64,000 nt of DNA from an uncultured Planctomycetia bacterium (GCA_964635565.1 CAZWON010000006.1:10837-74836); one strand, 5' to 3'; positions 46,050 to 64,000 are shown, counted from the first letter of the stretch. The notes: a model not told the origin generated them from the sequence alone. Translations and numbers: made by a program.

Positions 46050-46607
46050 TTAGGGGAAAGATATCTTTACAATGGTTAAACGAGAAATGGCAATAGGCGA
46101 GTTTTCTTCTTTAGGACTTATATTTAATTTCTCTACAGTTAAAATTTCTTTTGCTGACTCTATCCGATAAAGAAAACTTATTATTTTAGGCATATCTCCT
46201 TCGCAATTTAAATCTACATAGTATTTAATAATATTGTTTTCCTTCTTGATAGCAGAGGGTCTTATGTTAAGAAGATTAACCGAAGATTTGCGGGCAAAGT
46301 CTTCTATCAATTTTAGAAGACGATTCATCTCTTCATCATCGGAACCTGCTTTTTTTAAATAGGCACTGTAGTAGGAAGATTCTTTATTTATCTTCTCCTT
46401 TAAAGAAAGAAAACGTAAATCTTTCTGGATAATAAGTCTTTCCTTATCTATCTTTTCATCTAAGGATTCTATCTTCATAAAGGCGGGAGAAATCAACAAT
46501 CTGTCGAGAAAAGCCAAGAACACAAATACAATACTGCAATAGAATACAATCCTTTCTCTTTTAGATAATTTCTCTATAATAGCAGTTAACTGACCTATAT
46601 TAAACAT
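46050..46607 (-). CDS. GspM / PilO-like inner-membrane assembly protein
   Basis: Single N-terminal TM plus periplasmic domain. Last gene of the Gsp/Pil cluster. Confidence 0.5.
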   Translation of the reverse strand: MFNIGQLTAIIEKLSKRERIVFYCSIVFVFLAFLDRLLISPAFMKIESLDEKIDKERLIIQKDLRFLSLKEKINKESSYYSAYLKKAGSDDEEMNRLLKLIEDFARKSSVNLLNIRPSAIKKENNIIKYYVDLNCEGDMPKIISFLYRIESAKEILTVEKLNISPKEENSPIAISRLTIVKISFP

Positions 46608-48087
46608 TACTTTGAGTGGTCATTTTTAATTTAATTCCTACCTCAAAATCAGCAACTTCCTTATCTTCTTCTTTTCTTTTTGAAGTATAGCGCATTTTAA
46701 CTTCTTTAAATAAATCATCTTTACTTAAGTCTTCCACAAAAGAATAAATCGTAGTCATTGAGTCTGCAGTCCCTTTTATAGACAAAGAACTTGTTTCTCT
46801 GGTAAATCTAATATCGCTTATCGTTATAGCGGGAGAAAGATTTTTATAAATTCTATATATGATCTCTAAAGAATATCCTCTCTGGATAAGAAAGCGTTTT
46901 ATAAGCTGAGTGGTGCGGAATTTACTTTCTAAGGCATTGGCTTCTTTATGGATAACTTGAGAACGTTCTTTAAGCTTATCTAAATATATACTTCTAAATA
47001 CTATCTTACTGGCGACTAATATAAAAATAACTACTATAATGGAAAAAGAAAAAAATCCCATCCAGATTATCTGGCGACTTCTTTCCTCAAATGCTCTTTT
47101 GAGTTTAATCTCTTCGGGAAAGAGATTGATTTCTGTATTTTTATTCTCAAAAGAAGAAGCAATCACATCTAAGAACAAAGAAGGATTCACAGTAGAAAAC
47201 ATTTTTTTTACCTTTTCCCTTAAAACCAGATAATCTATAAAAGAAACACTTTCTGTAGTAATACCTATTGTATTATTCAGAAAAGGAGTTAAACCTTTAT
47301 ATTTTGTTGTAGGCATAAGAAGAAGAATCCTCTGAGGAACTGCTTCTATATCCTCGCTTCTATATACATCCAGAGATTTCTTTATTTCCTCTACAAATTG
47401 AGTAACATATCGTGTATAGTCCTCCTCGAGATGACGGTTTCCTATAGGAATACTCCGAGCAAAAACAGAATTTCCTCCAAAAACAATATTAAAATAACTG
47501 AAAGAACTATCAAGGTACAAAAAACCTGTAGGAAAATCGTCATTACTCAACTTAAATACTTCGGAAATAAATCTACCTGTGGTCTCCTGAGCAAAACATA
47601 TTTTTTTTATCTCTATTGCTGTCTTATTAATGATATTCATCTGCCTTCTTATAACCTCCCGCGTAACAATTACCAAAAGAACTTTGGTGTAATTTGCACG
47701 GTAAACCCCCATAATCTTATAATCAATAATGATTTCTTCTCGTGCATAGGGAGTATGACGAGCGGCCTGTAGATTCATAATATCAGCGATTTCCTTAGGA
47801 TCCTGGGAAGGAATCTCAATATTTTTGGTAATAGCCAGATGAGTGGGAATAACTAATACTATATTGGAATTCCTTAATTTTGTATCCTTAAAAAAAATTT
47901 TTATCTTCTCTGCTACATCATCATCAGTAAGCCCTCCCAAATCATAACCATATATATCCAAAACTTCACGATGGAATCTTTTTTGTTTAATATGAGCGAT
48001 TCTTAAGCCTCCTCCTCCAATCTGGATACTTATAGCATCCTTACTTTCTCCAAGAATAAAAGCATCTTTAAAATTATCTCCTAACAT
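46600..48087 (-). CDS. GspL-like protein (PilM actin-like ATPase fold fused to a PilN-like TM/periplasmic part)
   Basis: N-terminal PilM-like domain. One TM (IIWMGFFSFSIIVVIFILVA). C-terminal PilN/GspL periplasmic region. Confidence 0.6.
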   Translation of the reverse strand: MLGDNFKDAFILGESKDAISIQIGGGGLRIAHIKQKRFHREVLDIYGYDLGGLTDDDVAEKIKIFFKDTKLRNSNIVLVIPTHLAITKNIEIPSQDPKEIADIMNLQAARHTPYAREEIIIDYKIMGVYRANYTKVLLVIVTREVIRRQMNIINKTAIEIKKICFAQETTGRFISEVFKLSNDDFPTGFLYLDSSFSYFNIVFGGNSVFARSIPIGNRHLEEDYTRYVTQFVEEIKKSLDVYRSEDIEAVPQRILLLMPTTKYKGLTPFLNNTIGITTESVSFIDYLVLREKVKKMFSTVNPSLFLDVIASSFENKNTEINLFPEEIKLKRAFEERSRQIIWMGFFSFSIIVVIFILVASKIVFRSIYLDKLKERSQVIHKEANALESKFRTTQLIKRFLIQRGYSLEIIYRIYKNLSPAITISDIRFTRETSSLSIKGTADSMTTIYSFVEDLSKDDLFKEVKMRYTSKRKEEDKEVADFEVGIKLKMTTQSNV

Positions 48088-49119
48088 TTATTGCTCCCGC
48101 CAGAATAAAATATTTCCCTCTCGGCTCACTATACATTCTATAATCTCTTTAGCCTTTGAGTAACTAAGACTTGCTTCACTATTAATACTGAAATAATCTG
48201 AAGAAACGCCAATAAATCCTTTAGCCACAATATTACTTAAATTTTGCACTTCGCTTATAGAAAGGGAATAGTGCTGGCTTAAAGAAGGTACTACAGAAGT
48301 AGATGAAACAAAAATATTATCGTCCTCTGTCCCCAATTCACTATCTTCTCCCTTACGATAAGTAACTATCTTATCTATAACTGTATCCGTTATTCCAATT
48401 GCGGACAAAACTTCTTCTGAAGCTGTATTAATATTAACAGCCTTATCTCCATAGATAGTAATAAAATCCTTTATTTTATTAAATATATCAAAAGTTATTC
48501 CTTTTACCAGAAGTAACTCATCTAAACTCTCATAATCATCATCTTTACAATCATAAGGCTCACTGAGATTCCTATAATAGCTATCTTCAGCGCTACCCTG
48601 AGGAATCAAAAGATTACTATCCTTGTCTCTAAAATCAATTATAGAAGCAGCAAATTCTTTAGCCTCACTTTCACTTACATTAAGAACTATTTCAAACAAT
48701 CTTTCTATAATCTTCATATCTACTTTGTTTATGTTTATTTTTCTTGCCTCATCGACTACACCAAACATCGTTCTTATTGTACCATCTTGGGGGTAATTAT
48801 AAAATACATTAAATCTTCCTAAACCAATTTTTATATCCTTAAATTCTTCCTTTTTAGAAGCCCACACATCCAAAAAACTATCTATCCTGCTACTGTCATC
48901 TTTTGATATTGCCAAAATAGCTTTATTAACACCTGCCAAAGCAATAAGATGAAGAACATCCCTTTCTCCCAATCTTTTCACAAAAAGTGCCTTCTGCCTT
49001 GCTCCTCTCCCTAAATATAAACTAAAGATAGAAAGTAAAATTAAAACCCATAAAGCAAAGACTAAAATCATTCCCTTTTGATATTCCTTAATCATTTTGT
49101 ATCCAATCTTTAACTTCAC
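48088..49119 (-). CDS. gspK: GspK-like minor pseudopilin
   Basis: N-terminal hydrophobic segment MILVFALWVLILLSIFSL typical of GspK. Length 343 aa. Confidence 0.55.
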   Translation of the reverse strand: MKLKIGYKMIKEYQKGMILVFALWVLILLSIFSLYLGRGARQKALFVKRLGERDVLHLIALAGVNKAILAISKDDSSRIDSFLDVWASKKEEFKDIKIGLGRFNVFYNYPQDGTIRTMFGVVDEARKININKVDMKIIERLFEIVLNVSESEAKEFAASIIDFRDKDSNLLIPQGSAEDSYYRNLSEPYDCKDDDYESLDELLLVKGITFDIFNKIKDFITIYGDKAVNINTASEEVLSAIGITDTVIDKIVTYRKGEDSELGTEDDNIFVSSTSVVPSLSQHYSLSISEVQNLSNIVAKGFIGVSSDYFSINSEASLSYSKAKEIIECIVSREGNILFWREQ

Positions 49120-49711
49120 CTAAAGGTATATTAACCACTCTTTGATAATTAAAGGTACTATTTTTATAACGTAATGATATATATAGACTTACAGATAAAG
49201 GGATATCCTTTGTGTTCCATTCTTCTTTCCAAAAATATTTTTTTTCCTTAAGGTTATAAGAATAATAATTTATCCTAAAATCATCAATATTATTTAAAAG
49301 CAATTGTGTTGTCCCTTCTTTCTCGCGATAAATATCATTTAAATTTTTTAGAACTCTAAATATTTTCTTATTTTTTTTATCCCAATAGTATGTAACTTCT
49401 CCTATACCTTTACTTAAACCAGGAAACTGACTATTTTTTTTTATAAAGGTAGCAAAACTTACTTTTATTTTACTGCCCCTAAAATCTATAGAATTATACT
49501 TAACGGTATTCCTTAAATCGTAAGAAAATTTCTCAAAAAATATTGCTACATCCTCATCACTACTTTCTTTATAAACTCTCTGCCATATTTTTAAGCCACT
49601 ACTAAAAGTAGCAAGTAAAGTAAGTCCTACCACCGAAAATATACCTGCTACAATTACTGCTTCTATAAGAGTAAAATTATTTTTATTAAAAAATCTTCTT
49701 TTTTTCTCCAT
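49088..49711 (-). CDS. Minor pseudopilin (GspJ-like), prepilin-type N-terminus
   Basis: FTLIEAVIVAGIFSVVGL prepilin helix. The residue before Phe is Asn rather than Gly. Confidence 0.55.
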   Translation of the reverse strand: MEKKRRFFNKNNFTLIEAVIVAGIFSVVGLTLLATFSSGLKIWQRVYKESSDEDVAIFFEKFSYDLRNTVKYNSIDFRGSKIKVSFATFIKKNSQFPGLSKGIGEVTYYWDKKNKKIFRVLKNLNDIYREKEGTTQLLLNNIDDFRINYYSYNLKEKKYFWKEEWNTKDIPLSVSLYISLRYKNSTFNYQRVVNIPLGEVKDWIQND

Positions 49712-49722
49712 AAAATATTTCT

Positions 49723-50220
49723 TTACTCCTTCTTAAAATAAATATAAGTAGCGCGCACTAATTCTATATTTCTCTTACTCTCTCTCCATTTAACTTTTAA
49801 TGTTATTCTGTACATATCTATCTTATCTGTTCCTTCAGAAAAAGAATACGAAAGGTCCCATAAGAATTTTTTATTATATACATCAAAATATCCTCTGGTC
49901 TGGGGAAAAAGAGGAGCTTTATATCGCTTTAAATCATTTTCAATGCTCTCTATTTTATTATCCATCCACAGTTGGGCATATATATAATGTTGAGCATATG
50001 AAGAAACATTAAGGGAGGTAAAAAAACTTTCGTATATAAAAAGGATTCCTGTAACAAGAATAACTACTGCAACAATAAGCTCAACAAGAGTAAAGTAAGC
50101 CTTCCAAACTCTTTTTTTACCAAGAAAGTTATTGCAAGGAGAGATTTCATTATTTATATCTAATATGGAAATAATTTCTTTATTCCCAATTGGTAATATC
50201 GTCTTCGCTTTCTTTACCAT
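49723..50220 (-). CDS. Minor pseudopilin (GspI/H-like), prepilin-type helix. The 5' end is uncertain.
   Basis: FTLVELIVAVVILVTGILF with Glu at +5. The called ORF has a 41-aa leader and overlaps gspG by 41 nt. Confidence 0.5.
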   Translation of the reverse strand: MVKKAKTILPIGNKEIISILDINNEISPCNNFLGKKRVWKAYFTLVELIVAVVILVTGILFIYESFFTSLNVSSYAQHYIYAQLWMDNKIESIENDLKRYKAPLFPQTRGYFDVYNKKFLWDLSYSFSEGTDKIDMYRITLKVKWRESKRNIELVRATYIYFKKE

Positions 50221-50617
50221 CTCTTCCTAAAGAATACAAATCATAATCAGGTTTATGCCTTCCTGGAGAAACATACCGATATTTTCTCCCCCACGGATCA
50301 AGGGGTTCCTTTTCTAAATAAGGACCATTCCAGTTTGGTGCCCCTGAAGGTTTCTTCAAAAGAGCTTCTAAGCCCTCATCAGTAGTAGGAAAAACTCCAT
50401 TATCCAGCTCATAAAGCTTAAGAGCAGTAGCGATATTAACCTGAATATCTGCTTTAGCAGCTGCTCTTCTTGCCTGTTCTCCTCTTCCTGCAAGACGAGG
50501 AAACACCATTGCTACTAATGCACCAATAATAATAACTACAAGCATAAGCTCAATAAGGGTAAATCCTTTAGATACAATAATTTTCTGGCCAATATATCTT
50601 ATCTTCATTATTAACAC
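50180..50617 (-). CDS. gspG: Type II secretion major pseudopilin GspG
   Basis: KG|FTLIELMLVVIIIGAL prepilin site. GspG C-terminal signature DPWGRKYRYVSPGRHKPDYDLYSLGRDGKESEDDITNW. Confidence 0.85.
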   Translation of the reverse strand: MLIMKIRYIGQKIIVSKGFTLIELMLVVIIIGALVAMVFPRLAGRGEQARRAAAKADIQVNIATALKLYELDNGVFPTTDEGLEALLKKPSGAPNWNGPYLEKEPLDPWGRKYRYVSPGRHKPDYDLYSLGRDGKESEDDITNWE

Positions 50618-50629
50618 CTCCTTAAATCT

Positions 50630-51478
50630 TTAATCTTTACGATAGTATTTTTTCCATTCTCTCTCTAAATCCTCGATAGTATTAAAATAGTTTGCGTAAG
50701 AAGTGCGCAATGCCTCCTCTATGCTTTTACCATCACGTAACTGACGACAAAAATCTGTAAATCTCTTATTCCCATATTTCTCAATTAGGAAGCCTACCAG
50801 TGATACTGCCTCTAAATAGTAAAGATTAATAAGGTTTTTGCCTGTCATAATAAGAACTAAGGGAATACCGTTATCATTGGTATAACGGACATATATTTTA
50901 TCAGTAGACTTTATATTTCTTATGTCCATTTTCATCATATCACGCAGAGAAAGCAATGTTTTCTTTCTAAATGTATCATTTATTATATCCTCTATTGCGT
51001 CTCTCTTTGATTTTTCTTCCCACTGGGCAATTCCTTCATCAAGCCACAGAGGGATAAAGCTTGTAAACCCTACGAAATCTCTAAACATAAGGTGAGTAAT
51101 CTCATGAGGTAAAATGGAATCAAGGAATCCTTTACCCCTAAAATAACCCATAATTATCTTTTTGGTATAATCCGCCATACCATGAGACCAGTTAGGCATA
51201 TTACTTGCTTTAAGATAAGATTGGTGACTGGGATAGATGTATATCCTTACTCTTTTATCCCACAGCCAGAACTTCGAATAACGTTCATAACCTAAATCCC
51301 GGGCAATATCTATATAATATTTTTCTGCACAGGAGAGAACTTCTTGAGCAAAGGATAAATGCTGAGGATAATAATACACGATAAAATGTGTTCCTTTAAG
51401 TCGAGAAAAATCATCCTCTGCAAAAAGGAGAGAGTTAAAACTTAAAAAGAAAAGAATAAAAACTATTATCCTCTTCAT
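50630..51478 (-). CDS. Secreted peptidase-MA-like zinc metalloprotease
   Basis: Signal peptide. HEITH followed by WLDEGIAQW, which matches the Peptidase_MA_2 pattern HExxH ... W.xEG.A. Confidence 0.55.
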   Translation of the reverse strand: MKRIIVFILFFLSFNSLLFAEDDFSRLKGTHFIVYYYPQHLSFAQEVLSCAEKYYIDIARDLGYERYSKFWLWDKRVRIYIYPSHQSYLKASNMPNWSHGMADYTKKIIMGYFRGKGFLDSILPHEITHLMFRDFVGFTSFIPLWLDEGIAQWEEKSKRDAIEDIINDTFRKKTLLSLRDMMKMDIRNIKSTDKIYVRYTNDNGIPLVLIMTGKNLINLYYLEAVSLVGFLIEKYGNKRFTDFCRQLRDGKSIEEALRTSYANYFNTIEDLEREWKKYYRKD

Positions 51479-52687
51479 TTATCTAACCATAATATTTATT
51501 TGAAAAATAGGAAGGAGCATTGCCAGCACAATAAAACCTACAATTGAACCTATAAAAAGAATCATTATGGGTTCTAAAACAGTAGTGAAAACCTTTGTTC
51601 CTTCTTCTAATTCTTCCTCATAAATTGTGGCTAATTCTCCTAATGTCTCGTCCAACCTGCCTGATTCTTCTCCAATAGAAATCAAACTCGTAACAAAAGG
51701 AGGAAACATTTTTGACTGCCCCAAAGATGTTCCCAGCGATGCGCCATCTTCTAACTCTTTTATACTTTTCAAAAACTCACTCTTTATAACCTCATTATTC
51801 AAGATAGGAATGACAAGATTTAACCCTCTTAGTATAGGGATTCCACTTTTTATTAGAATTTCTAAGGTCCTACTTAAAAGGGCTATATCCTTTTTAAAAA
51901 CAAAATCTTTTAATACAGGAATACGTAACTTTAAAATACTTAAAAAAACCCTAACCTCTTTTCTCTTTCTCTGCCGAAGATAAATAAGAAGAAATACACA
52001 TAAAGAAATTACTATAAGGGGCCATTTTTCTTTTAGGAGAGTACTTAAAGAAATTAGAATACGTGTAGGTAAAGGAAGTTGGGAACCTAATTCAGAAAAA
52101 ATATTCATAAGGCGAGGGACCACAAAAGAAAGCATAAATATCACTGTTCCCACCCCTACTAATAACATGATTATAGGATAAACCAAAGCAATTTTTACTT
52201 TAGAAAATATATCTGCTTGCTTCTGACGATAATTTGCAATCCTTAATAAAACCTCCTCTAATTTACCACTATCCTCTCCTGCTTTTACCATAGAAGTATA
52301 AAAATTAGAAAATACCATAGGAAATTTGGCTAATGCAGAAGAGAAACTCTGGCCTTCTTTTATCTCGGAATGCAATTTTAGAACAACTCTCTTAAAATAA
52401 CTATTTTGCATCTGGTGAGAAATTATTTCCAAAGCTCTTAGGATAGGAACCCCTGCTTTAATAAGAATAGCTATCTGTCTCGTAAATACTGTAATTGTGC
52501 GAAAACTTACCCTTTTAAATAAAACTCTTTTAGAAGGAATATCTTTAAGAACTTTTTCTTCTAATCTTACAGGAAAATATCCCATTTCTTCTATTTTCTT
52601 AAGTGCTGATTCTTTGTTAGATGCTTCTATTTCTCCTTCAACTACTGTCTGGGGGTCAGTTTTTGCACGATAATAATAGATAGCCAT
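51479..52687 (-). CDS. gspF: Type II secretion / type IV pilus platform protein GspF/PilC
   Basis: Two GspF repeats. Three TM segments. Length 402 aa. Confidence 0.85.
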   Translation of the reverse strand: MAIYYYRAKTDPQTVVEGEIEASNKESALKKIEEMGYFPVRLEEKVLKDIPSKRVLFKRVSFRTITVFTRQIAILIKAGVPILRALEIISHQMQNSYFKRVVLKLHSEIKEGQSFSSALAKFPMVFSNFYTSMVKAGEDSGKLEEVLLRIANYRQKQADIFSKVKIALVYPIIMLLVGVGTVIFMLSFVVPRLMNIFSELGSQLPLPTRILISLSTLLKEKWPLIVISLCVFLLIYLRQRKRKEVRVFLSILKLRIPVLKDFVFKKDIALLSRTLEILIKSGIPILRGLNLVIPILNNEVIKSEFLKSIKELEDGASLGTSLGQSKMFPPFVTSLISIGEESGRLDETLGELATIYEEELEEGTKVFTTVLEPIMILFIGSIVGFIVLAMLLPIFQINIMVR

Positions 52688-52696
52688 CTATTCTCC

Positions 52697-52785
52697 TTCT
52701 TAGCTCATAGCTGTTAGCTCATAGCTCATATTTTTAAGCAAGGAAAGAGCTAAAGAATGAGCTATGAGCTATTCCATTATTCTTT
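52697..52785. repeat. Perfect 14-bp inverted repeat (AGCTCATAGCTCAT / ATGAGCTATGAGCT) plus box element between gspE and gspF
   Basis: Arms at 52716..52729 and 52757..52770 with a 27-nt loop. Followed by gagctattccattattc. A related element lies at 60470..60625. Confidence 0.75.
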
Positions 52786-52787
52786 TA

Positions 52788-54896
52788 TTATTTCTCTTCC
52801 CTAACAAAATAGTTTATTCGTGTTCTTTCACTTCCTGTAAGGTCCAAAAAACAAATACCTATCTCATATCTATCTATTTCCTCAGCAGGTTTAGACCAGA
52901 CAACTTTAGCTAAACATACAATAGGGTCTTTACCATCAGGTAACTCCATATTAACCTCTAAGATTGAACCTATGGGGATTTCTTCAGGAGCAATAAAAGC
53001 AACACCTCCCGCACTGATATTTTTTGTCGTAGTAAATTTATCCCATAAATATCCTTTTTTGGTAAGTTCCTCTTTTGATTTTATAATACGATAAAGAATA
53101 CGAATACGGGCATCTAATCTTTTAAAAGCCCGCTGTTCTAAAAAAATACTGGCTTCTCTTAAAGAAGTCTTTTCTTCATAAAGAAACCTCTTATCTTCAC
53201 TTGATACTACTCTCATAACCTCTTCAGGGGTGGTTATTCCTTCCATAACTTTATACCAACCATCTTGCCTTAAAGTATTCATACCTCTTTGAATAGCAAT
53301 CTTTTTTATTTCCTCTGAAGGAGCTCTTTCTATTACTAAATTTCTAATTACCTCGTCCATTAAAAGAATCTCATATATACCTGTTCTACCCAGATAACCC
53401 GTAAAATTGCATTTCTCACAGCCTCTACCTTTAAAAATTCTTAACTCTTCTGGTGAGGTTAATGACAAATCTTGTGCAATTTGGTTTTTAAGTTCAACGG
53501 ATAACTCTTTATCGTCCTCTTTACAATGAGGACAAATTACTCGCACCAATCTCTGAGCAATGAACGCTTCAATACTTGAGGAAACAAGATAAGGTTCTAT
53601 CCCAACATCAATTAACCTAGCTACCCCACTAGCAGAATCTTTAGTATGAAGAGTAGAAAACACCAAATGGCCTGTTAAAGCCATTCTTATGGCAATCTCT
53701 GCGGTCTCTAAGTCGCGTACCTCTCCTACCATAATAATATCAGGATCATGCCTTAAAATACTACGTAACCCACGGGCAAAATCTAAACCTATATCTGGCG
53801 CTACTTGTATCTGAGTAATACCTTTGAGTTCATATTCAATGGGGTCCTCAATAGTAATAATCTTTCTATCGCGGGTATTAAGTTTGCTTAAGCAAGCATA
53901 AAGAGTTGTGGTCTTACCACTTCCTGTAGGGCCAGTAATAAAAATAATACCGTTGGGTTTTGAGATGAGTCTCTCTACAATCTTTAAATCATTATCAGAA
54001 AACCCTAATCTTTCTAAACTGAAAAGCATTTTTGTAGGAAGAATTCTAATCACCATGCTTTCTCCATAAGGAGTAGGAAGGGTAGAAATTCTTAAATCTA
54101 AATTCTGCTCCCGCGTCTTAACTATTGTACGACCATCCTGAGGAAGCCGTTTTTCTACAATATTGAGATTGCACATTATTTTTATACGGGAAATAATGGG
54201 TAGAATAAATTTCTTTACTTCTTTAGAAATATTGGCATCGTACAATACTCCATCAATACGATAACGAATAGAAACCTCTCCTCGGTAAGGTTCAATATGA
54301 ATATCGGTAGCTCTTCTTTTATAAGCTTCAAATATTATCTGATTAACTAACTTCATTATAGAAGCATCTTCGGCTAACTCTTCTATATCTTCTATTTCTT
54401 TTACCGTAAAATCTTTCGGTTTGGTAGAGAGAGAAATTTTATCCACGGTATCTGCTCCTAAACCATAATGACGTTTTAAACTCTCATAAATATCCTCCTC
54501 TAAGGAAAGTTTCATTTCTATATTACATCCCAAGTGAATCATCAACTCATCCTGGGTCTTTATATTAAAAGGATAGGCAACTGCGATAACTAAAGTATTG
54601 TTTTTCTTAAGTTGCAAAGGGAAAAAGTGATAATAAAAAGCAATGCGTGCCGATACTTTCTTTAATGCTTCTTTATCTAAAGAGAGATTATTCAAATCCA
54701 CTACTTCTAAAGCTAATTCTTCAGCTAAAGCATTTAAAGCTGTTTTTTTATCAACGATTCCTTTTTTAGAAATAGCCAAGATAAAACTTTCTTTAGTAGA
54801 TGCTATTTCTTTCGCAACCTCCTCTGCCACTTCAGAAGAAATTACTCCTCTTTTAACAAGAATGCTCTTAATTTGTGTATCATATCTTCCTGCCAT
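52788..54896 (-). CDS. gspE: Type II secretion ATPase GspE with a C-terminal PilZ domain
   Basis: T2SSE_N N-terminal domain. Walker A GPTGSGKTT. Tetracysteine CPHC ... CEKC. The C-terminal ~125 aa carry PilZ motifs RAFKR (RxxxR) and NISAGG (D/NxSxGG). Confidence 0.85.
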   Translation of the reverse strand: MAGRYDTQIKSILVKRGVISSEVAEEVAKEIASTKESFILAISKKGIVDKKTALNALAEELALEVVDLNNLSLDKEALKKVSARIAFYYHFFPLQLKKNNTLVIAVAYPFNIKTQDELMIHLGCNIEMKLSLEEDIYESLKRHYGLGADTVDKISLSTKPKDFTVKEIEDIEELAEDASIMKLVNQIIFEAYKRRATDIHIEPYRGEVSIRYRIDGVLYDANISKEVKKFILPIISRIKIMCNLNIVEKRLPQDGRTIVKTREQNLDLRISTLPTPYGESMVIRILPTKMLFSLERLGFSDNDLKIVERLISKPNGIIFITGPTGSGKTTTLYACLSKLNTRDRKIITIEDPIEYELKGITQIQVAPDIGLDFARGLRSILRHDPDIIMVGEVRDLETAEIAIRMALTGHLVFSTLHTKDSASGVARLIDVGIEPYLVSSSIEAFIAQRLVRVICPHCKEDDKELSVELKNQIAQDLSLTSPEELRIFKGRGCEKCNFTGYLGRTGIYEILLMDEVIRNLVIERAPSEEIKKIAIQRGMNTLRQDGWYKVMEGITTPEEVMRVVSSEDKRFLYEEKTSLREASIFLEQRAFKRLDARIRILYRIIKSKEELTKKGYLWDKFTTTKNISAGGVAFIAPEEIPIGSILEVNMELPDGKDPIVCLAKVVWSKPAEEIDRYEIGICFLDLTGSERTRINYFVREEK

Positions 54897-54946: not shown

Positions 54947-55579
54947 TCACCGCCTCCTACTTCCTGCCTTATTCTTTCTTATCCAATTAAGCAGAGCTTC
55001 TGCATAATCATCTCTACCAAGAGCTCTTAAACGTTTTACTTCTTTTAGGGCACTTGCCTTATCTCCACTATTAAAATAGGCTCCTCCTAAAGCTACATAA
55101 GCATTAAAATAATCGGGCTTAAGCATTGTGCATTTCTTCAATGACTGAACCGCTTTATTATAATCTTTCATACTCATATAAACAAGACCTAAATGATAAT
55201 ATAACAAGGGATTTTTTGGCTGAATAATTCTTGCTTTCATAAAATATCTGATTGCTTCTTCATAATCTTTTTTAGAAGCGAAAATTAACGCTAAGTTATA
55301 ATAAGCACTAAAACTTTTAGGATTAAGTTTTATAACTTTCTTATAACAACTAATTGCTTTGTTATAATCTTTTTTTAGCCCGTAAATAAGCCCTAACTGT
55401 AAATAAGCAATACTATGGGAAGGGTCAATTTTTATAATTTCTTTATATTCTCTTATAGCAGAATCATAATCCTGTTTTTTAACATAAGCATTAGCCTTTT
55501 CGAACCTATCAGCAATCTCGCCGCAAAAAGCATTAAATGAGAATAAAAATATTAGTAAAAATAAATTTATTAACTTCAT
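54947..55579 (-). CDS. TPR-repeat protein with signal peptide (PilF/PilW-like candidate)
   Basis: Signal peptide ending FNAFC. Five to six TPR units (AIREYKEIIKIDPSHSIAYLQLGLIY and so on). Directly upstream of gspE. Confidence 0.65.
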   Translation of the reverse strand: MKLINLFLLIFLFSFNAFCGEIADRFEKANAYVKKQDYDSAIREYKEIIKIDPSHSIAYLQLGLIYGLKKDYNKAISCYKKVIKLNPKSFSAYYNLALIFASKKDYEEAIRYFMKARIIQPKNPLLYYHLGLVYMSMKDYNKAVQSLKKCTMLKPDYFNAYVALGGAYFNSGDKASALKEVKRLRALGRDDYAEALLNWIRKNKAGSRRR

Positions 55580-55606: not shown

Positions 55607-57013
<1,407 letters not shown>

Positions 57014-57104: not shown

Positions 57105-57959
57105 TTACTTCTGTGCTTTCCGCTCAAAAATCATTCTTGCTGCAAATAATTCTCTCATACTTCTATCGGTTAATTCATGACGGAGACGAAAATATTTATA
57201 TTTCAGTTTCTCATCCAGTTCTTCAATTTTATGAGTGCAATCTTCTAAATGCATAAATCGAGCAGCAAACTCAGCCAATCTACTCATCATAAGAATTTCA
57301 TATATTCTTTTTACTATCCAGAGATAAATTAAATATTCCACTACTTGCTCTATATAAGACTCCCAAACAAATCCATAAATATCTATTTGTTTGTTACCCT
57401 CTTTAAGGTGACCACAAGGTAGAAGGGTTTCTATCTCTACTCGCTGAACAGCTAAAGAGTACGCTTTAGGATAAATTATCTTAACTTTACCTATACTACC
57501 TTTTATCACTTCTTTTAATATATAACTCTGAAGAGCTACTGCCTGTTCACCAACATAGTCTTCTTTAATTCCTTCCATATATACACAATTTATCCCTCTT
57601 TCTCGCACATAGATTCTTCCTCTCTCTCCTACAACAATAAGCCTTCCTTTCTGTTTTGATAGCTCAATAAATGCTTTATTTATTACCTGCATATTAAGTC
57701 CCCCTAAAAGCCCTGCGTCAGAAGTGATAGCAATAACTCCTAAAAGGTTGCTTGAAGGTGTAATAAAGGGATGGGATATATCTTTTAAATCTATACTGCC
57801 AAGAAATTCTTCTACTACCCGAGAAAACTTCTCAAAAGGATGAACTTTTCCTTCAAAAGCATAAAATTGAGAAATGGCGATCCCTTTAAGAACTTTAAGA
57901 AGCTCGGCTAACCCTTTGTAGAAATCCCTATCCCTTTTTACATCAGAAATAAAAGCCAT
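57105..57959 (-). CDS. atpG: F-type ATP synthase gamma subunit (divergent)
   Basis: Length 284 aa. C-terminal helix LAEFAARFMHLEDCTHKIEEL aligns with the gamma EHAARMxAM block. Sits between alpha and beta. Confidence 0.7.
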   Translation of the reverse strand: MAFISDVKRDRDFYKGLAELLKVLKGIAISQFYAFEGKVHPFEKFSRVVEEFLGSIDLKDISHPFITPSSNLLGVIAITSDAGLLGGLNMQVINKAFIELSKQKGRLIVVGERGRIYVRERGINCVYMEGIKEDYVGEQAVALQSYILKEVIKGSIGKVKIIYPKAYSLAVQRVEIETLLPCGHLKEGNKQIDIYGFVWESYIEQVVEYLIYLWIVKRIYEILMMSRLAEFAARFMHLEDCTHKIEELDEKLKYKYFRLRHELTDRSMRELFAARMIFERKAQK

Positions 57960-57973
57960 TTATTATTATTTAC

Positions 57974-59461
57974 CTAACCCTTCTTACTAAAATACTTCTG
58001 TAAGAAAGAATATAATACTTCCTGAATTTTATCAGTAACAATCTTCTGTTCTCGTAATCTAGAAATAACTTCAGGATATTCTTTCCTAAGAGCATACAGA
58101 CAATACTGCTTAAAATCCCTGATTTCTGAAGAAGAAAGATTATCCAGTATTCCCAAACTTAAGGCATAAAGATAAATTATCTGCTCCTCAATCTCAATAG
58201 GAGCATTTTTAGGCTGGATAAGAAGATGAGTTATTATTTCTCCTCTTTTTAAAGAACGTTCCGCCTCTTTAGAAAGACTGGTAGCACGTAGCTGTGTCAT
58301 CTGAAGAAGCTCTTTGTACTGAAGATACCCCAAACGCAAGTTTCTACTTAAAGCTTTCATTGCTGGCCATTGTGCTTTACTGCCAATACGGGAGACAGAA
58401 AGACCTAAATCAATTGCTGGTCTAAATCCTTTATTAAAGAGTGAGGTGCTAAAATATATTTGGCCATCGGTCATAGAAATAATATTTGTAGAAATATATC
58501 CGGTGACATCCCCATGTTGAATCTCTACAATAGGGAAAAAAGTCATTGAACCCCCTCCTAATTCAGGGCGAAGTTGACCTGCTCTTTCCATAAGTTGAGA
58601 ATGAATATAGAAAATGTCTCCCGGATAAGCTTCTCTACCTGGCGCTCTTCCTAAGAGCAAAGATATCTGCCTGTAGACCCAGGCATGACGGGTCAAATCA
58701 TCAAAAACAACAAGAACATCTTTTCCTTTATGCATAAAATATTCTCCCAGCATGCAAGCGGTATAAGGAGCAAGGTATTGTTCTCCTGCTGAAGTAGAAG
58801 CAACACCGCTTACTACAATTGTATAGGAAATAGCATCTTTTTCTTTTAGAATATCCAGAATCTTAACTAAATTAGAATAAGGTTTGCCAATGCAACAATA
58901 TATACACACTACATTTTTACCTTTCTGATTAAGAATAGTATCTATAGCTACGGTGGTTTTACCTGTTAATCTATCTCCAATAAGTAGCTGGCGCTGGCCT
59001 TTACCAATGGGGATAGTAGCATCTATGGTAAGTATTCCTGTTTCAAGAGTTCTATCTACAGGAACCCTATCTAATACCCCAGGTGCATCTCTAAAAACAG
59101 GATATAATCTATCTGTTTTAATCTCTCCCAACCCGTCCTGAGGCTGACAAAGACTGTCTACTACTCTACCTAAGAAAGCTTCTCCCACAGGAAGCGATAG
59201 AAACTGACCTTTATTATAAACCTCTTCTCCTGCTTTTATATCTACAGCAGAACCTAAAACAAGAATCTGAACTTCATCTTCAACAAATCCAATGACTATG
59301 CCTTTAAGACCATTAAAAAATTCAACCATCTGACCATTAACACAACTAGGTATACCACGAGCAAAAACAATAAATTTCTGGACTGATTTTATAGTCCCTA
59401 CTTCACGAATATCTACAGAATAATTAATATTTTGGTTTAAGTTATTTATCCCTTCTTCCAT
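57974..59461 (-). CDS. atpA: F-type ATP synthase alpha subunit
   Basis: P-loop GDRLTGKTTVAIDTILNQ. Blocks LAPYTACMLGEYF, YRQISLLLGRAPGREAYPGD. Confidence 0.9.
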   Translation of the reverse strand: MEEGINNLNQNINYSVDIREVGTIKSVQKFIVFARGIPSCVNGQMVEFFNGLKGIVIGFVEDEVQILVLGSAVDIKAGEEVYNKGQFLSLPVGEAFLGRVVDSLCQPQDGLGEIKTDRLYPVFRDAPGVLDRVPVDRTLETGILTIDATIPIGKGQRQLLIGDRLTGKTTVAIDTILNQKGKNVVCIYCCIGKPYSNLVKILDILKEKDAISYTIVVSGVASTSAGEQYLAPYTACMLGEYFMHKGKDVLVVFDDLTRHAWVYRQISLLLGRAPGREAYPGDIFYIHSQLMERAGQLRPELGGGSMTFFPIVEIQHGDVTGYISTNIISMTDGQIYFSTSLFNKGFRPAIDLGLSVSRIGSKAQWPAMKALSRNLRLGYLQYKELLQMTQLRATSLSKEAERSLKRGEIITHLLIQPKNAPIEIEEQIIYLYALSLGILDNLSSSEIRDFKQYCLYALRKEYPEVISRLREQKIVTDKIQEVLYSFLQKYFSKKG

Positions 59462-59467
59462 TATTAT

Positions 59468-60193
59468 TTAAACTTCATTTATTAGCTGGCGTGCTCCTTC
59501 CTTTATCTTCCACTTCAAACTAGCATCAATTACTAAACTTCCTATATTAATTAATAAACCAGACAATAAAGAAACGTCTTTTTCCTTTATAAACTCTATG
59601 TTCTTGCCTATTTTTTCCTTTAACTTAGAAGAAATAACATCAAACTTACTATCATCAAGGTCAAAAGCGCTTTTTATTACTGCAAAGGAGGCATCTACAT
59701 TTTGAGAAATGCTCAATTTATCAATCCCTGCATGAATAAATTCATCCACTAAATGATTATGTAATATTAAACGGACCTCTTGGCTAAGTGCTTTATCCAA
59801 TAAACTAACTGCTTCCTCTATTGCCTTTTCTTTGATTTTTCTTTCCATTTCCAAAATAAGATTCTGGCGAGCTTTTTCTGCCTGTTTTATCATTTCTTCA
59901 CTTTCCTGGCGGGCCTTCTCAATAATCTTCTCTTTCTGGGCGTTAGCTGATTGCTGAATTGCTTGCTTAATCTTTTCTGCTTCTTCTTTTGCTTCAGAAA
60001 TTTTCTTCTGATACATCTGGTTTATCTCATCTAAACGTTTATCTACCTCTTCCTGTTTTTTCATGTAATCTCTGGTAAGAACATCTAAATGCTGTGTAGC
60101 AGAAGTTATGTTTTTGGATAAAACTTTTTTAAGCAAGAATACAAGAAAAGCAAATATAATAACCTGAAATACTATTAAAACTACAAGCAACAT
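59468..60193 (-). CDS. atpF: F-type ATP synthase subunit b fused to a delta (OSCP) C-terminal-domain-like region
   Basis: N-terminal TM and charged coiled coil (b-like). The C-terminal approximately 100 aa (DVSLLSGLLINIGSLVIDASLKWKI) resemble the delta C-terminal domain. No separate delta gene is present. Confidence 0.6.
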   Translation of the reverse strand: MLLVVLIVFQVIIFAFLVFLLKKVLSKNITSATQHLDVLTRDYMKKQEEVDKRLDEINQMYQKKISEAKEEAEKIKQAIQQSANAQKEKIIEKARQESEEMIKQAEKARQNLILEMERKIKEKAIEEAVSLLDKALSQEVRLILHNHLVDEFIHAGIDKLSISQNVDASFAVIKSAFDLDDSKFDVISSKLKEKIGKNIEFIKEKDVSLLSGLLINIGSLVIDASLKWKIKEGARQLINEV

Positions 60194-60251: not shown

Positions 60252-60467
60252 TTAAGGAGTAAGAATCTGAAAAACAATCAGCATCGCAATAATAGCTAAG
60301 CTCTGGGCAAATACAAGACCTACCACCATTGCAGTAAAAATCTTAGGAGCAGCAGAGGGATTTCTCCCTAAGGCATTGATACTGGCAAATATTCCTGCAG
60401 CAAAAACAGCACACGGTCCTAAAATGCATAACCCAAAAATTACAATCAGTGCTAAATTTCTACTCAT
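60252..60467 (-). CDS. atpE: F-type ATP synthase c subunit, with Gln at the conserved carboxylate position
   Basis: Two-helix hairpin. The ALGRNP loop aligns with the RQP/RNP loop. The residue 20 positions after the loop Arg is Q55 (CAG at 60305..60303), where E/D is expected. Confidence 0.75.
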   Translation of the reverse strand: MSRNLALIVIFGLCILGPCAVFAAGIFASINALGRNPSAAPKIFTAMVVGLVFAQSLAIIAMLIVFQILTP

Positions 60468-60469
60468 AT

Positions 60470-60625
60470 TATTAGCTCAGGGCTCTTAGCTCTTGGCTCA
60501 TAGAGTAGCTCTTAGCTCATAACTCTTAGTTCCTCGCTCTTCGTTCTTGTTTAATATCAACTATGAGCTAACAGCTATGAACTATGAGCTAATTTCTATT
60601 CGCTAAACGCTATTTACTCTACCCC
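60470..60625. repeat. Composite intergenic repeat element (imperfect long hairpin plus GAGCTAATTTCTATTCGCTAAACGCTATTTACT box) between atpC and atpE
   Basis: AGCTCTTAGCTCAT ... ATGAGCTAACAGCT inverted arms. The 30-mer gagctaacagctatgaactatgagctaa nearly matches the reverse complement of 52701..52730. Box copies occur at five other loci. Confidence 0.75.
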
Positions 60626-60686
60626 ACTATCCTATACACGATACGCTCAACGCACAGCGAGATATGGTTTATCCGCTATACGCTCT

Positions 60687-60920
60687 TTACGGTTCTTCCA
60701 CAATTATTGTCGCAACGTTCTTCTCTAATTTTACCACACCCCTCTTAATTATAAATGAATTTTTATTATCAATACTGATATGGCCTCTTATTAGACGAGA
60801 GATGATATTTTTATGAAAAGGGGTAATTTCAAATACCCCCTGCTCACCAGGTAAAATAATACTCTTTGCCTTCCCTTCAAAAATTGTCTTCTGAGGGGAA
60901 ATAATCATAAATTCTAACAT
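60687..60920 (-). CDS. atpC: F-type ATP synthase epsilon subunit, N-terminal beta-sandwich domain only
   Basis: MLEFMIISPQKTIFEGKAKSIILPGEQGVFEITPFH matches the epsilon N-terminal domain. At 77 aa it lacks the C-terminal helical hairpin. Confidence 0.7.
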   Translation of the reverse strand: MLEFMIISPQKTIFEGKAKSIILPGEQGVFEITPFHKNIISRLIRGHISIDNKNSFIIKRGVVKLEKNVATIIVEEP

Positions 60921-61826: not shown

Positions 61827-64000
61827 CTACTGTAAAACTGTTGAAACAATGGGTGCGTCCATGCCACCGAATTTAGCCTCAAACAGAGCCTGAAGAATTC
61901 TTAAAACACCCTCTATAGTATCTGTTTTCTTCCTAATTGCCTTAATTGTAGGGGACTCACTGAGTTTCTCTTCAAGTATCTCACTAATATCATAACCCTG
62001 ACCAGCTGCTAACTCAGTTAATTTATCTGTAATCTCGTTTAAAGTGCTAGTAACTATAGGGCTTGCTCCTTGGTTTGCAATAATCGAAGGAAGTTCTTCT
62101 ACAGATTCCTGTAAATTCTTTAAAGTAATTGCAATACTTACTCCGTCTTCGCTTCCAATAGTAGCTTCTAATGCTTTTACTAAATCTAAAGTTTTCTTAG
62201 CAGCTCGTTCAGCCTCAGGAGCAGCAGAGGCTAACCCTGCAATAGTAGTTATAGACATTTCCTCTACTGAACCAGAACCTGTAACTAATCCTCCAGTAGT
62301 CTGTTCACTAACAGTATAGGTATAAGCCTTTCCAGGGGTAAAGCGTGTATCTGCATTAAATTCAAAAATATATAAACCAGGAGTTGTCTCCGTCATTACC
62401 CAATCCTTTACAATAGATTGGTTATCCCAACTGTATATATTCACCATAGGATAAAGTCCGCTGGGTCCTTGAACCTGCAAAGTAATGGCTTCTCCGCTTA
62501 AAGCAGGATTAGGTGATACTGTTGCTTTCCAAGAATATTTCTTAGCTGTTGCTTCTAATTCCTCACCTGCAGCTACTGCCTGTTCCGCACCTGCTTGGAG
62601 TTGCTCAATAGCCTCTGTGGTGCGTTCTTCAAAACTTGTTAAGGTTTCATCTACAGCGCTAACCATTTCATCGGTCTTTGTCTCAATAATAGTTTTTTGC
62701 TCTTCCATCTTCTGGTCAATAAGGTCAGTCTGGTCTTGTAGTGTCTGTTGTATTTCTGCATTCACCTCTGATATAGGTTTATCCAAAACTGCATTTACAG
62801 TATCCTGAACATCCTGTAATTTTGTTTCCGCAGTAATAGTAAAGGAATCTGGCGTTTTAAAGTGGGCACCACTGGCATTAGTAATATCTGTAATAGTTGT
62901 ATATACTTTCCCTGCAATAAGAGTTGTAGGATTCCATATAGAACTAAAGAAACCTGCAGGATCAGGGCTTGTATCAACTAAATGGGCAATTTCTTGTTCA
63001 GTTTCTGGGTCATAGATATATACATCTGCCTGAATACCACCACTTACTACAAATCCATCTCGTTCAAGCCAGCTACTTACACTGAGAGTATCTGTCGTTG
63101 GGTCGTAGGCAAAATCAGAGTAAGCCCGCCAAATATGGATAGCTGTTGTTTCCATAAAAATAGTCTCGTTCTCTGTCCCTACTAAAGGCTCATCTCTATC
63201 CAAAAGGAAACTAATCTGCTTATCACCATAACCAGTCTTTGACCACACGAGCGTCCAGAAACCATAAGGAAGCTCAACAGTACAAGGTGAACCTAAAGGT
63301 GCGCCAGGATTACCTGGCATCTCTGAGGTCTGCCAAACATCCCCTTTATCGGAAGAGCCATCAACGGTAAGTTGAGATAAGTTCTCATTAGTTAAAAGAT
63401 CCCTTATGTTAAAAGTCACAGAATAATAGTCTATAATAAAGTTATCATCGGAGGTATCGTTAACAGTAACATCACGAATATCAGAAACTCTCACCTTTAC
63501 AGTGGTTGAACGATCATCAGGAATTGTCCAAGCATAAGAATTAGGGGAAATCGTATTATCATAGGAAGAAACAATAGTATGAAGATCGGTATTAAAATTA
63601 TCTTTAGAATACTCAATATTTACTAAAGGAATTGAACCTTGTGTAGTTTCCCACGTAATATTGTGTTCTTCTCTTGTAACCCACCGTTCTCCACCATTAG
63701 GAGAAGTAATATGTAAGATTCCTCTCACAATAGAACAATCACTATCAGAGGCATCAAAAGCATCAGAATCAGTTGCACTCATCACTCTTACTCTAATTGT
63801 CTCAATCCTACTCTCTCCTTGAGGAGGAGCATTAGGAACTTTCCAGATATAACTTCCTGTATTAGGGGTTGAAGAAACAATGGCATAATCAAAAGTCAAT
63901 CCACTATCTTTAGAATAATCTAATCTTACATTATCTACGGTTCCTACACAACTCCAACTAACTGTGTAATCCTCACCTACAGTAAGTTCTTCTCCGCCAT
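61827..64000 (-). CDS. Large Ser/Thr/Asp-rich surface or secreted repeat protein, 5'-truncated by the window edge
   Basis: The track start at 63899 is a TTG. Own reading shows the frame stays open to 64000. Repeated YSKD..T.....N.....Y.W.IP units. A central Q/E-rich coiled-coil segment. Confidence 0.5.
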   Translation of the reverse strand, partial: GGEELTVGEDYTVSWSCVGTVDNVRLDYSKDSGLTFDYAIVSSTPNTGSYIWKVPNAPPQGESRIETIRVRVMSATDSDAFDASDSDCSIVRGILHITSPNGGERWVTREEHNITWETTQGSIPLVNIEYSKDNFNTDLHTIVSSYDNTISPNSYAWTIPDDRSTTVKVRVSDIRDVTVNDTSDDNFIIDYYSVTFNIRDLLTNENLSQLTVDGSSDKGDVWQTSEMPGNPGAPLGSPCTVELPYGFWTLVWSKTGYGDKQISFLLDRDEPLVGTENETIFMETTAIHIWRAYSDFAYDPTTDTLSVSSWLERDGFVVSGGIQADVYIYDPETEQEIAHLVDTSPDPAGFFSSIWNPTTLIAGKVYTTITDITNASGAHFKTPDSFTITAETKLQDVQDTVNAVLDKPISEVNAEIQQTLQDQTDLIDQKMEEQKTIIETKTDEMVSAVDETLTSFEERTTEAIEQLQAGAEQAVAAGEELEATAKKYSWKATVSPNPALSGEAITLQVQGPSGLYPMVNIYSWDNQSIVKDWVMTETTPGLYIFEFNADTRFTPGKAYTYTVSEQTTGGLVTGSGSVEEMSITTIAGLASAAPEAERAAKKTLDLVKALEATIGSEDGVSIAITLKNLQESVEELPSIIANQGASPIVTSTLNEITDKLTELAAGQGYDISEILEEKLSESPTIKAIRKKTDTIEGVLRILQALFEAKFGGMDAPIVSTVLQ

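Follow-up and report, generated by a model that had tools for sequence, protein, structure and literature searches.

The window, by which the whole analysed stretch of 64,000 nucleotides is meant, carries towards its end a series of minus-strand genes in which the subunits of an F-type ATPase lie between a giant open reading frame (ORF) on one side and a set of T2SS/T4P-like genes on the other. In the reading direction of the minus strand, the features are the following:

61827..64000, minus strand: C-terminal portion of a giant ORF that runs on past the window edge, made up of tandem repeats of about 95 aa
60923..61726, minus strand: bitopic membrane protein of 267 aa, assigned by homology to the C-terminus of the giant ORF
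60687..60920, minus strand: epsilon subunit of 77 aa, consisting of the N-terminal beta-sandwich only (PF02823, 50.1 bits)
60468..60686, no strand assigned: epsilon-c spacer with sequence repeats, too short for a subunit a
60252..60467, minus strand: F-type c subunit of 71 aa with Gln55 at the carboxylate position (translation, PF00137, phmmer, MAFFT, AlphaFold, Foldseek)
59468..60193, minus strand: b-delta fusion of 241 aa with one N-terminal transmembrane (TM) helix, peripheral stalk (PF00430 and PF00213)
57974..59461, minus strand: alpha subunit of 495 aa (canonical atpA cut-offs; GDRLTGKT and SVSRIG motifs)
57105..57959, minus strand: gamma subunit of 284 aa, divergent (PF00231, 113.8 bits)
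55607..57001, minus strand: beta subunit of 464 aa, predicted to be catalytically competent (TIGR01039; Walker and DELS motifs)
54947..55579, minus strand: TPR protein with an N-terminal hydrophobic, signal-like segment, located between beta and GspE (ORF and domain search)
46050..54896, minus strand: T2SS/T4P-like genes (domain matches)

The 71-residue protein encoded at 60252..60467, MSRNLALIVIFGLCILGPCAVFAAGIFASINALGRNPSAAPKIFTAMVVGLVFAQSLAIIAMLIVFQILTP, has been recognised as an F-type c subunit by profile, sequence and structure comparisons. The Pfam family ATP-synt_C (PF00137), an alignment proposed in the preliminary description of this locus, matched the ORF with 24.7 bits against a gathering score of 24, and the top phmmer matches among all PDB chains were exclusively c or proteolipid subunits, the best of them being the c subunit of Chloroflexus aurantiacus (9itj_H, E 5.7e-6). 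The narrower model TIGR01260 gave 17.3 against a cut-off of 43.95, and c was likewise below the cut-off in all of the PRK equivalogs. An AlphaFold model built with an alignment of 39 relatives is a two-helix hairpin (helices 3-35 and 40-69, pLDDT 89), for which the top Foldseek matches in the PDB were all F-type c-ring chains, with TM-scores of 0.63-0.78. The polar loop connecting the helices is RNP and is invariant among the relatives, which bears out the earlier reading of ALGRNP as the R-Q/N-P loop of c subunits. The agreement between PF00137, phmmer, MAFFT and the hairpin model upholds the proposal that this minus-strand ORF is an F-type c subunit carrying a Gln at the carboxylate position.

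That residue is encoded by CAG (bases 60305..60303) as codon 55, 20 residues past the loop Arg35. In the phmmer alignments with c subunits of solved structure, Q55 is paired with the ion-binding Glu, and a gapless MAFFT alignment puts it in the same column as E. coli D61, PS3 E56, I. tartaricus E65 and spinach E61; both the codon and the column are those given in the preliminary description. An acidic residue, Asp or Glu, halfway along helix 2 is expected of an F-type c subunit serving as an ion carrier; here it is absent, its place being taken by Gln55. Across the whole sequence of 71 residues not a single Asp or Glu occurs, and therefore alternative alignments cannot restore a carboxylate. 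An acidic residue brought into the column from elsewhere in the protein, which had been named as the observation that would overturn the claim, is impossible, as c has none. Helix 1 was also described as poor in glycine, and this holds as well, with four Gly in the 30 residues ahead of the loop Arg against seven to eight in the reference c subunits. The positions of the GxGxGxG motif read G17-P-C19-A-V21-F-A23, and the same replaced form is conserved in the family. The residue aligned with Q32, a Na+ ligand in I. tartaricus, is F22, which occurs in 120 of 121 aligned sequences and without exception in the alignment of 39. With F22 occupying the Q32 position, the protein is predicted to be without the Na+ ligand set.

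The Gln is genuine and inherited and does not stem from a sequencing error. An identical c protein occurs on five contigs whose samples, from ENA, Logan, NCBI and JGI, are independent of one another; in the cluster formed at 90% identity, each of the eight members reads FAQSL, and the closest species relatives (loci L007 and L008) carry Gln codons of both kinds, CAG and CAA. Since CAG and GAG are separated by one base, it was natural to suspect a misread or misassembled housekeeping GAG codon, or a variant confined to one strain, and this had been put forward as something to be excluded. The recurrence of the same protein over independent samples, throughout the 90% cluster and across species leaves this explanation a negligible probability. 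The check for Gln in homologues that had been suggested found it in 40 of 84 related loci, encoded by both CAG and CAA. As the Gln state is inherited across samples and species, reads supporting GAG, the other observation named as able to overturn the claim, are not the explanation.

A protein search with c over 5.8 billion proteins returned 405 relatives, which belong to Omnitrophota/Omnitrophica wherever a name is given. Among the best 120 of these 405 relatives (protein clusters), the carboxylate column holds Q in 65, E in 52, M in two and Y in one, while the RNP loop is invariant throughout. When one genome per GTDB species was scanned, relatives turned up in 319 stretches, and 80 loci were retrieved; together with four metagenome loci they constitute the set of 84 Omnitrophota loci, in which the column reads Q in 40, E in 34, V in three, A in two, S in two, and M, G and F in one each. 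The codons used are CAG (30), CAA (10), GAG (20) and GAA (14). About 60% of species have a neutral residue as their wild type and about 40% keep Glu, so that some members could still bind an ion. On a neighbour-joining tree calculated from the remaining columns, at least 19 changes of state are required, compared with a mean of 41.7 when the states are shuffled, although the tree of a 71-residue protein is poorly resolved and the number of switches is approximate. Pairs of proteins that are 94-97% identical outside the column differ in having E or Q. Distant representatives of 50% clusters carry mostly E, with some Q, S and A/T; because of this distribution, and because the column switches many times, Glu is probably the ancestral state and has repeatedly been lost. 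These comparisons indicate that the helix-2 carboxylate of c is dispensable in the Omnitrophota family.

The loss of the carboxylate has not been accompanied by a relaxation of the protein as a whole. The c subunit is the most conserved protein of the locus, with a median identity to the window of 73%, against 69% for beta, 68% for alpha, 53% for epsilon, 43% for gamma and 36% for b-delta. Between the window locus (L001) and L007, c has a pN of 0.019 and a pS of 0.68, and the median pN/pS over all 3321 pairs is 0.25, the reported pN/pS values spanning 0.03-0.25. The c subunit is under strong purifying selection, and selection of this kind also acts on the rotor and stalk subunits. The loop and its flanks, ALGRNPS.APKIFTAM, are nearly invariant; in F-type enzymes this loop surface of c binds gamma and epsilon.

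Proteins with several c hairpins were also encountered. P0135 (1139 aa), P0128 (968 aa), P0136 (447 aa), P0169 and P0160 are single-chain fusions of multiple c hairpins, the first three having 15, eight and five stretches matched by HMMER, respectively. Their readable repeats keep Glu and they lie outside the Omnitrophota locus family, resembling the known 13-hairpin K subunit of Methanopyrus kandleri. P0131 and P0138 (138-140 aa) are two-hairpin (4-TM) duplicates of the RNP-loop c, with Glu in both hairpins.

Among the other subunits, alpha and beta exceed the cut-offs of canonical ATP synthase models, alpha scoring 564.8 against 554 with NF009884 and 554.7 against 484.45 with TIGR00962, and beta scoring 585.9 against 462.85 with TIGR01039. 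The best PDB matches of both are ordinary bacterial F1, and on the strength of these two subunits alone the cluster would be expected to receive the annotation of an ordinary ATP synthase. Gamma, epsilon, c and b-delta are recognisable, yet all of them remain under the equivalog cut-offs. Gamma reaches 79.5 with TIGR01146, for which the cut-off is 194, and the best NCBIfam model for b-delta is alt_F1F0_F0_B (TIGR03321), which is covered from profile position 8 to 236 of 246 with a score below the cut-off. The epsilon ORF measures 74-90 aa throughout the 84 loci and is therefore without the C-terminal helical domain, the part of epsilon that inhibits hydrolysis in bacterial F1. The motifs of catalysis are conserved across the family, comprising Walker A, the catalytic Glu motif G[VI]GER.REG, Walker B and DELS..D in beta, and the P-loop in alpha. 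The arginine finger of alpha lies in SVSR[IV]G, present in 75 of 75 sequences, and its Arg corresponds to bovine alpha R373 by counting on the bovine sequence. Variation between R and K in the motif G-F-[RK]-P-A-I-D was considered as a lost arginine finger and ruled out, as the finger is that of SVSR[IV]G. From these motifs, the alpha3beta3 core is predicted to be catalytically intact.

The order of genes (giant ORF, C-terminal TM module, epsilon, c, b-delta, alpha, gamma, beta, GspE/PilB-PilZ, GspF/PilC) is common to every locus long enough to judge, whether its c is of the E-, Q- or M-type. A gene for subunit a is missing from this arrangement, as no such ORF was found in the window cluster or in 85 related loci, the search having covered the window and 10 kb on either side in the relatives. 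The spacings between epsilon and c and between c and b are mostly below 400 bp, and gaps of more than 500 bp in the 86 loci hold unrelated ORFs and none that is a-like. In these larger gaps lie a vWA-like protein, a diverged b-delta, a second giant gene, or an inserted toxin-antitoxin or nucleotidyltransferase element. With E. coli subunit a as the phmmer query, the window and 1.16 Mb of loci gave no match, but this is a weak test, made with a single query; the stronger argument is that the 86 syntenic loci offer neither the space for a subunit a nor an unassigned multi-TM ORF. Neither a second set of ATPase genes in the 64-kb window nor a second c gene in the window or the 86 loci was found. 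Taken together, the loci indicate that the cluster belongs to a family of F-type enzymes in which the absence of a is a shared trait, and not a mutated housekeeping ATP synthase.

The epsilon-c spacer of the window, of about 220 bp, is larger than that of most relatives (3-60 bp), and the spacers of L007 and L008 are enlarged too. It consists of imperfect repeats with a period of about 14 nt (TTAGCTC..GCTC) and contains an inverted repeat of 33 nt with 82% complementarity (60471-60503 / 60561-60593). It could act as an RNA hairpin on the translation or stoichiometry of c, or could be a small repeat insertion. A subunit a hidden in this spacer or in the gaps of other loci was considered and rejected, the spacer being occupied by repeats and the gaps by unrelated ORFs. 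A scan for promoters and terminators showed no enrichment over shuffled sequences. Two further observations concern individual loci. L016 and L020, both from assembly JAQURC01 (isolate STD1_64), are two complete copies of the locus on different contigs, each with a Q-type c, and reflect either a real duplication or a bin in which two strains are mixed. In L080 (1345..3111), a nucleotidyltransferase/HEPN-like pair lies between c and b-delta, and the TM module is separated from epsilon by a small pair resembling a toxin-antitoxin system, which shows that the operon tolerates insertions.

The giant ORF extends beyond the window, reaching at least 4010 aa on the parent contig (L001 1..8641) and at least 7753 aa in L005. 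Its repeats of about 95 aa are 35-48% identical among themselves, and it always ends just upstream of the ATPase genes. The 267-aa protein that follows it is composed of a beta-sandwich, a three-helix bundle and a C-terminal TM helix whose sequence is unusually conserved (TW..IF.I..F.GLL..V.FFTW). In other genomes, its homologue is the very C-terminal end of the giant ORF; among 75 loci, the module continues the reading frame of the giant gene in 40 and is separate, as in the window, in the other 35. On the far side of the ATPase genes, the slot of the TPR protein is held in some relatives by stand-alone MshEN-domain proteins, and the GspE/PilB gene starts 711 bp downstream of beta. The T2SS/T4P-like genes run in the order GspE/PilB (with MshEN and PilZ), GspF/PilC, an MA-type peptidase, pseudopilin G, a 165-aa ORF without a Pfam match, pseudopilins J and K, a PilM-PilN fusion and PilO/GspM. 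The GspE/PilB-type ATPase (52788..54896) bears an N-terminal MshEN and a C-terminal PilZ domain; because both are c-di-GMP-binding modules, this architecture suggests that the adjacent pilus or secretion system is under second-messenger control.

With a probability of about 0.75, this c subunit is part of an F-type ATPase that works without chemiosmosis, is distributed across the phylum Omnitrophota and corresponds to the published sF locus type. The preliminary description held that an E-to-Q ring would be incapable of canonical H+ or Na+ transport, and the wider comparison sustains this, as c has no acidic residue, the column is replaced by Q, V, A, S, M, G, F or Y in the family and no a occurs in 86 loci; as far as can be judged from sequence, the complex is very unlikely to move ions. 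Where subunit a is missing, there would be no half-channels, no stator Arg and no path for ions to or from the ring, and a Glu in the middle of the membrane would stay protonated and act like its isostere Gln. Such equivalence of Glu and Gln would in turn allow the two to be interchanged by one base (GAR/CAR) and small or hydrophobic residues to be tolerated. The c-ring would then be kept as the membrane-embedded foot of the gamma-epsilon rotor, functioning as a rotor or anchor instead of an ion carrier, and this role would explain the strong purifying selection on c. The enzyme would most likely run in the direction of ATP hydrolysis only. On a more speculative level, drawn from synteny, its mechanical output may pass to the C-terminal TM module of the giant protein, to the T2SS/T4P-like machine, or to both. 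The cluster probably serves as a membrane device that is driven by ATP and linked both to a giant surface protein and to a pilus or secretion system. A more specific proposal, which we regard as tentative and somewhat doubtful, is that of an ion-uncoupled rotary motor that delivers torque to the giant-protein TM module and/or the T2SS/T4P system and that would, in an ultra-small bacterium living as a predator or parasite, power adhesion, export, extension or retraction at the cell surface.

That the cluster is a decaying relic, in which the lost carboxylate marks an Fo on its way to becoming a pseudogene, might be suggested by the loss of both a and the carboxylate and by the divergence of gamma, epsilon and b-delta. 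This is hardly credible in view of ORFs that are all intact in more than 80 species, relatives in 319 species genomes, catalytic motifs that are preserved, and a c subunit that is the best conserved protein of the locus with pN/pS of 0.03-0.25. A working chemiosmotic F1Fo, with a and perhaps a second, Glu-bearing c encoded elsewhere and a mixed ring or an unconventional ion site, gains something from the canonical atpA/atpD scores of alpha and beta and from the tolerance of hybrid rings for carboxylate-less hairpins, for which the c1/c2/c3 rotor of A. woodii is an example; the search for a, moreover, extended over the window and 10 kb around the relatives. We nonetheless consider it improbable. 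Neither an a nor a second c is present in the 86 loci or the 64-kb window, c itself has no acidic residue and no Na+ ligand set (F22 at the position of Q32), and variants with V, A, S, G, F or M in the column are incapable of ion binding. The epsilon subunit is without its regulatory domain, the synteny is with a giant ORF and a T2SS and not with energy metabolism, and a V/A-type ATPase is common in part of the phylum (2026 preprint, discussed below).

Somewhat less improbable, but still unlikely, is that the F1-like part unfolds or exports pilins or the giant protein at the expense of ATP, with an oligomer of c as its dock at the membrane. A parallel would be type III export, where FliI, FliH and FliJ are homologous to alpha/beta, b-delta and gamma, respectively. 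The FliI/SctN models also recognise alpha and beta, if more weakly, and the cluster directly follows a giant ORF of at least 4010 aa and precedes a secretion-like system. Against this stand the F1 heterohexamer signature of alpha and beta and the presence of gamma, epsilon and c, which make up a complete rotor and not a homohexamer, and no homologue of an export gate was found. An export ATPase of this kind overlaps with the non-chemiosmotic F-type ATPase favoured here, both being independent of ion flow, and only the output differs.

The partnership between the c carboxylate and subunit a is usually held to be the invariant core of rotary ion translocation. A family represented in at least 319 species-level genomes of a single phylum would appear to have dropped both and to have kept the c hairpin as its most constrained part, which would separate the mechanical or structural role of the c-ring from the carrying of ions in a natural system and provide a concrete candidate for an ATP-driven, ion-independent membrane rotor. 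For metabolic reconstructions, it follows that chemiosmotic ATP synthases should not be inferred from alpha and beta matches in Omnitrophota metagenome-assembled genomes (MAGs). A conserved C-terminal TM module would tie the giant proteins of the phylum to the motor, which offers a lead on how hosts are attacked or attached to. If correct, an ion-uncoupled motor would constitute a new mode of output for rotary ATPases, parallel to and independent of the Mycoplasma gliding motor.

A non-respiratory, "symbiotic" (sF) F-type ATPase located next to T4aP genes has been described in Omnitrophota, with T4aP genes within 10 kb of the sF cluster in 57 of 66 contigs (Seymour et al., 2023, Nat Microbiol, PMC10066038). 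The group was defined by the phylogeny of alpha and beta, and sF alpha was placed near the Mycoplasma type 2/3 ATPases (PMC10066038). The window shares with it the phylum, F-type alpha and beta within 10 kb of T4P/T2SS-like genes and the proximity of giant ORFs. Judged from its Omnitrophota-named homologues and the make-up of the locus, with alpha compared by HMM scores, the window cluster is to be assigned to the published sF group. No mention of c, the lost carboxylate, the absent a, the b-delta fusion, the short epsilon or the giant-ORF TM module was found in that study (PMC10066038). The locus type has accordingly been in the literature since 2023, while an ion-blind c-ring and the lack of subunit a were not found described there, in papers on the giant genes or in a wider literature search.

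Functional parallels come from Mycoplasma, where type 2 (MMOB1660/1670) and type 3 (MSC_0618/0619) ATPases likewise put F1-derived alpha, beta and gamma to a use other than synthesis. In M. mobile, an F1-like motor is coupled to the giant surface proteins Gli349 and Gli521, and the type 2 cluster is without a peripheral-stalk homologue (PMC11864180); no c-ring is known to have been described for it. The Omnitrophota cluster differs from type 2 in having a clear c and a b-delta stalk. Membership in the Mycoplasma families is not supported, alpha and beta falling under the NCBIfam cut-offs of the type 2/3 models (NF045863/NF045858 and NF045936/NF045934: 412.7 against 600, 441.3 against 850, 309.5 against 520 and 399.9 against 570), and the G1 beta of M. 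mobile in the PDB is a weaker match to beta than canonical subunits are (368 against about 500 bits). The two systems may share the logic of driving giant surface proteins, the Omnitrophota motor having been derived independently, although this is speculative.

A 2026 preprint on 176 complete genomes reported alpha and beta to be common and gamma to be rarely detected at strict thresholds, in keeping with the divergent gamma of the window (bioRxiv 10.64898/2026.06.07.730766). The same preprint found V/A-type ATPase subunits in 70-99% of the class Gorgyraeia outside Pluralincolimonadales, from which it follows no more than that a further coupling enzyme is common within part of the phylum.

Compared with the canonical F1Fo, alpha and beta reach equivalog level here, whereas a subunit a, a full-length epsilon and separate b and delta are absent from the locus. 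The N-ATPase (alternate F1Fo, atpDCQRBEFAG) bears some likeness to the cluster in that either would be an additional F-type operon next to the main coupling enzyme, in that it has no separate delta gene and in that its b, of about 245 aa, is the best match of b-delta. It possesses subunit a, AtpQ/AtpR and a c with the full ion-binding set, in contrast to the Omnitrophota cluster, which is without a, Q and R and without the carboxylate. In the loci, neither subunit a nor extra small membrane ORFs occur between epsilon and c. Membership in the N-ATPase family was set aside, with atpQ, atpR and a lacking and all five alt_F1F0 models (TIGR03305/03324/03323/03322/03321) far under their cut-offs.

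Natural hairpins without a carboxylate are known from c1 of A. woodii and from the 16-kDa proteolipids of V-type enzymes, in each case as parts of hybrid or duplicated rotors, and set a precedent for rotor rings that accept a Glu-to-Gln or otherwise ion-blind hairpin. Chains of this kind are also found among the weak phmmer matches of c, for example PDB 4bem, which we take to be the Acetobacterium woodii rotor. Such rotors contain many carboxylate-bearing hairpins and work with a subunit a, whereas the only c gene of the Omnitrophota locus is ion-blind and no a accompanies it. In E. coli, the mutations cD61N and cD61G abolish proton translocation and oxidative phosphorylation. They neutralise the very position that is occupied by Gln55; in Omnitrophota, by contrast, the neutral state is the wild type and is found in a protein under purifying selection. 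On these comparisons, the cluster is best described as an F-type derivative without ion coupling.
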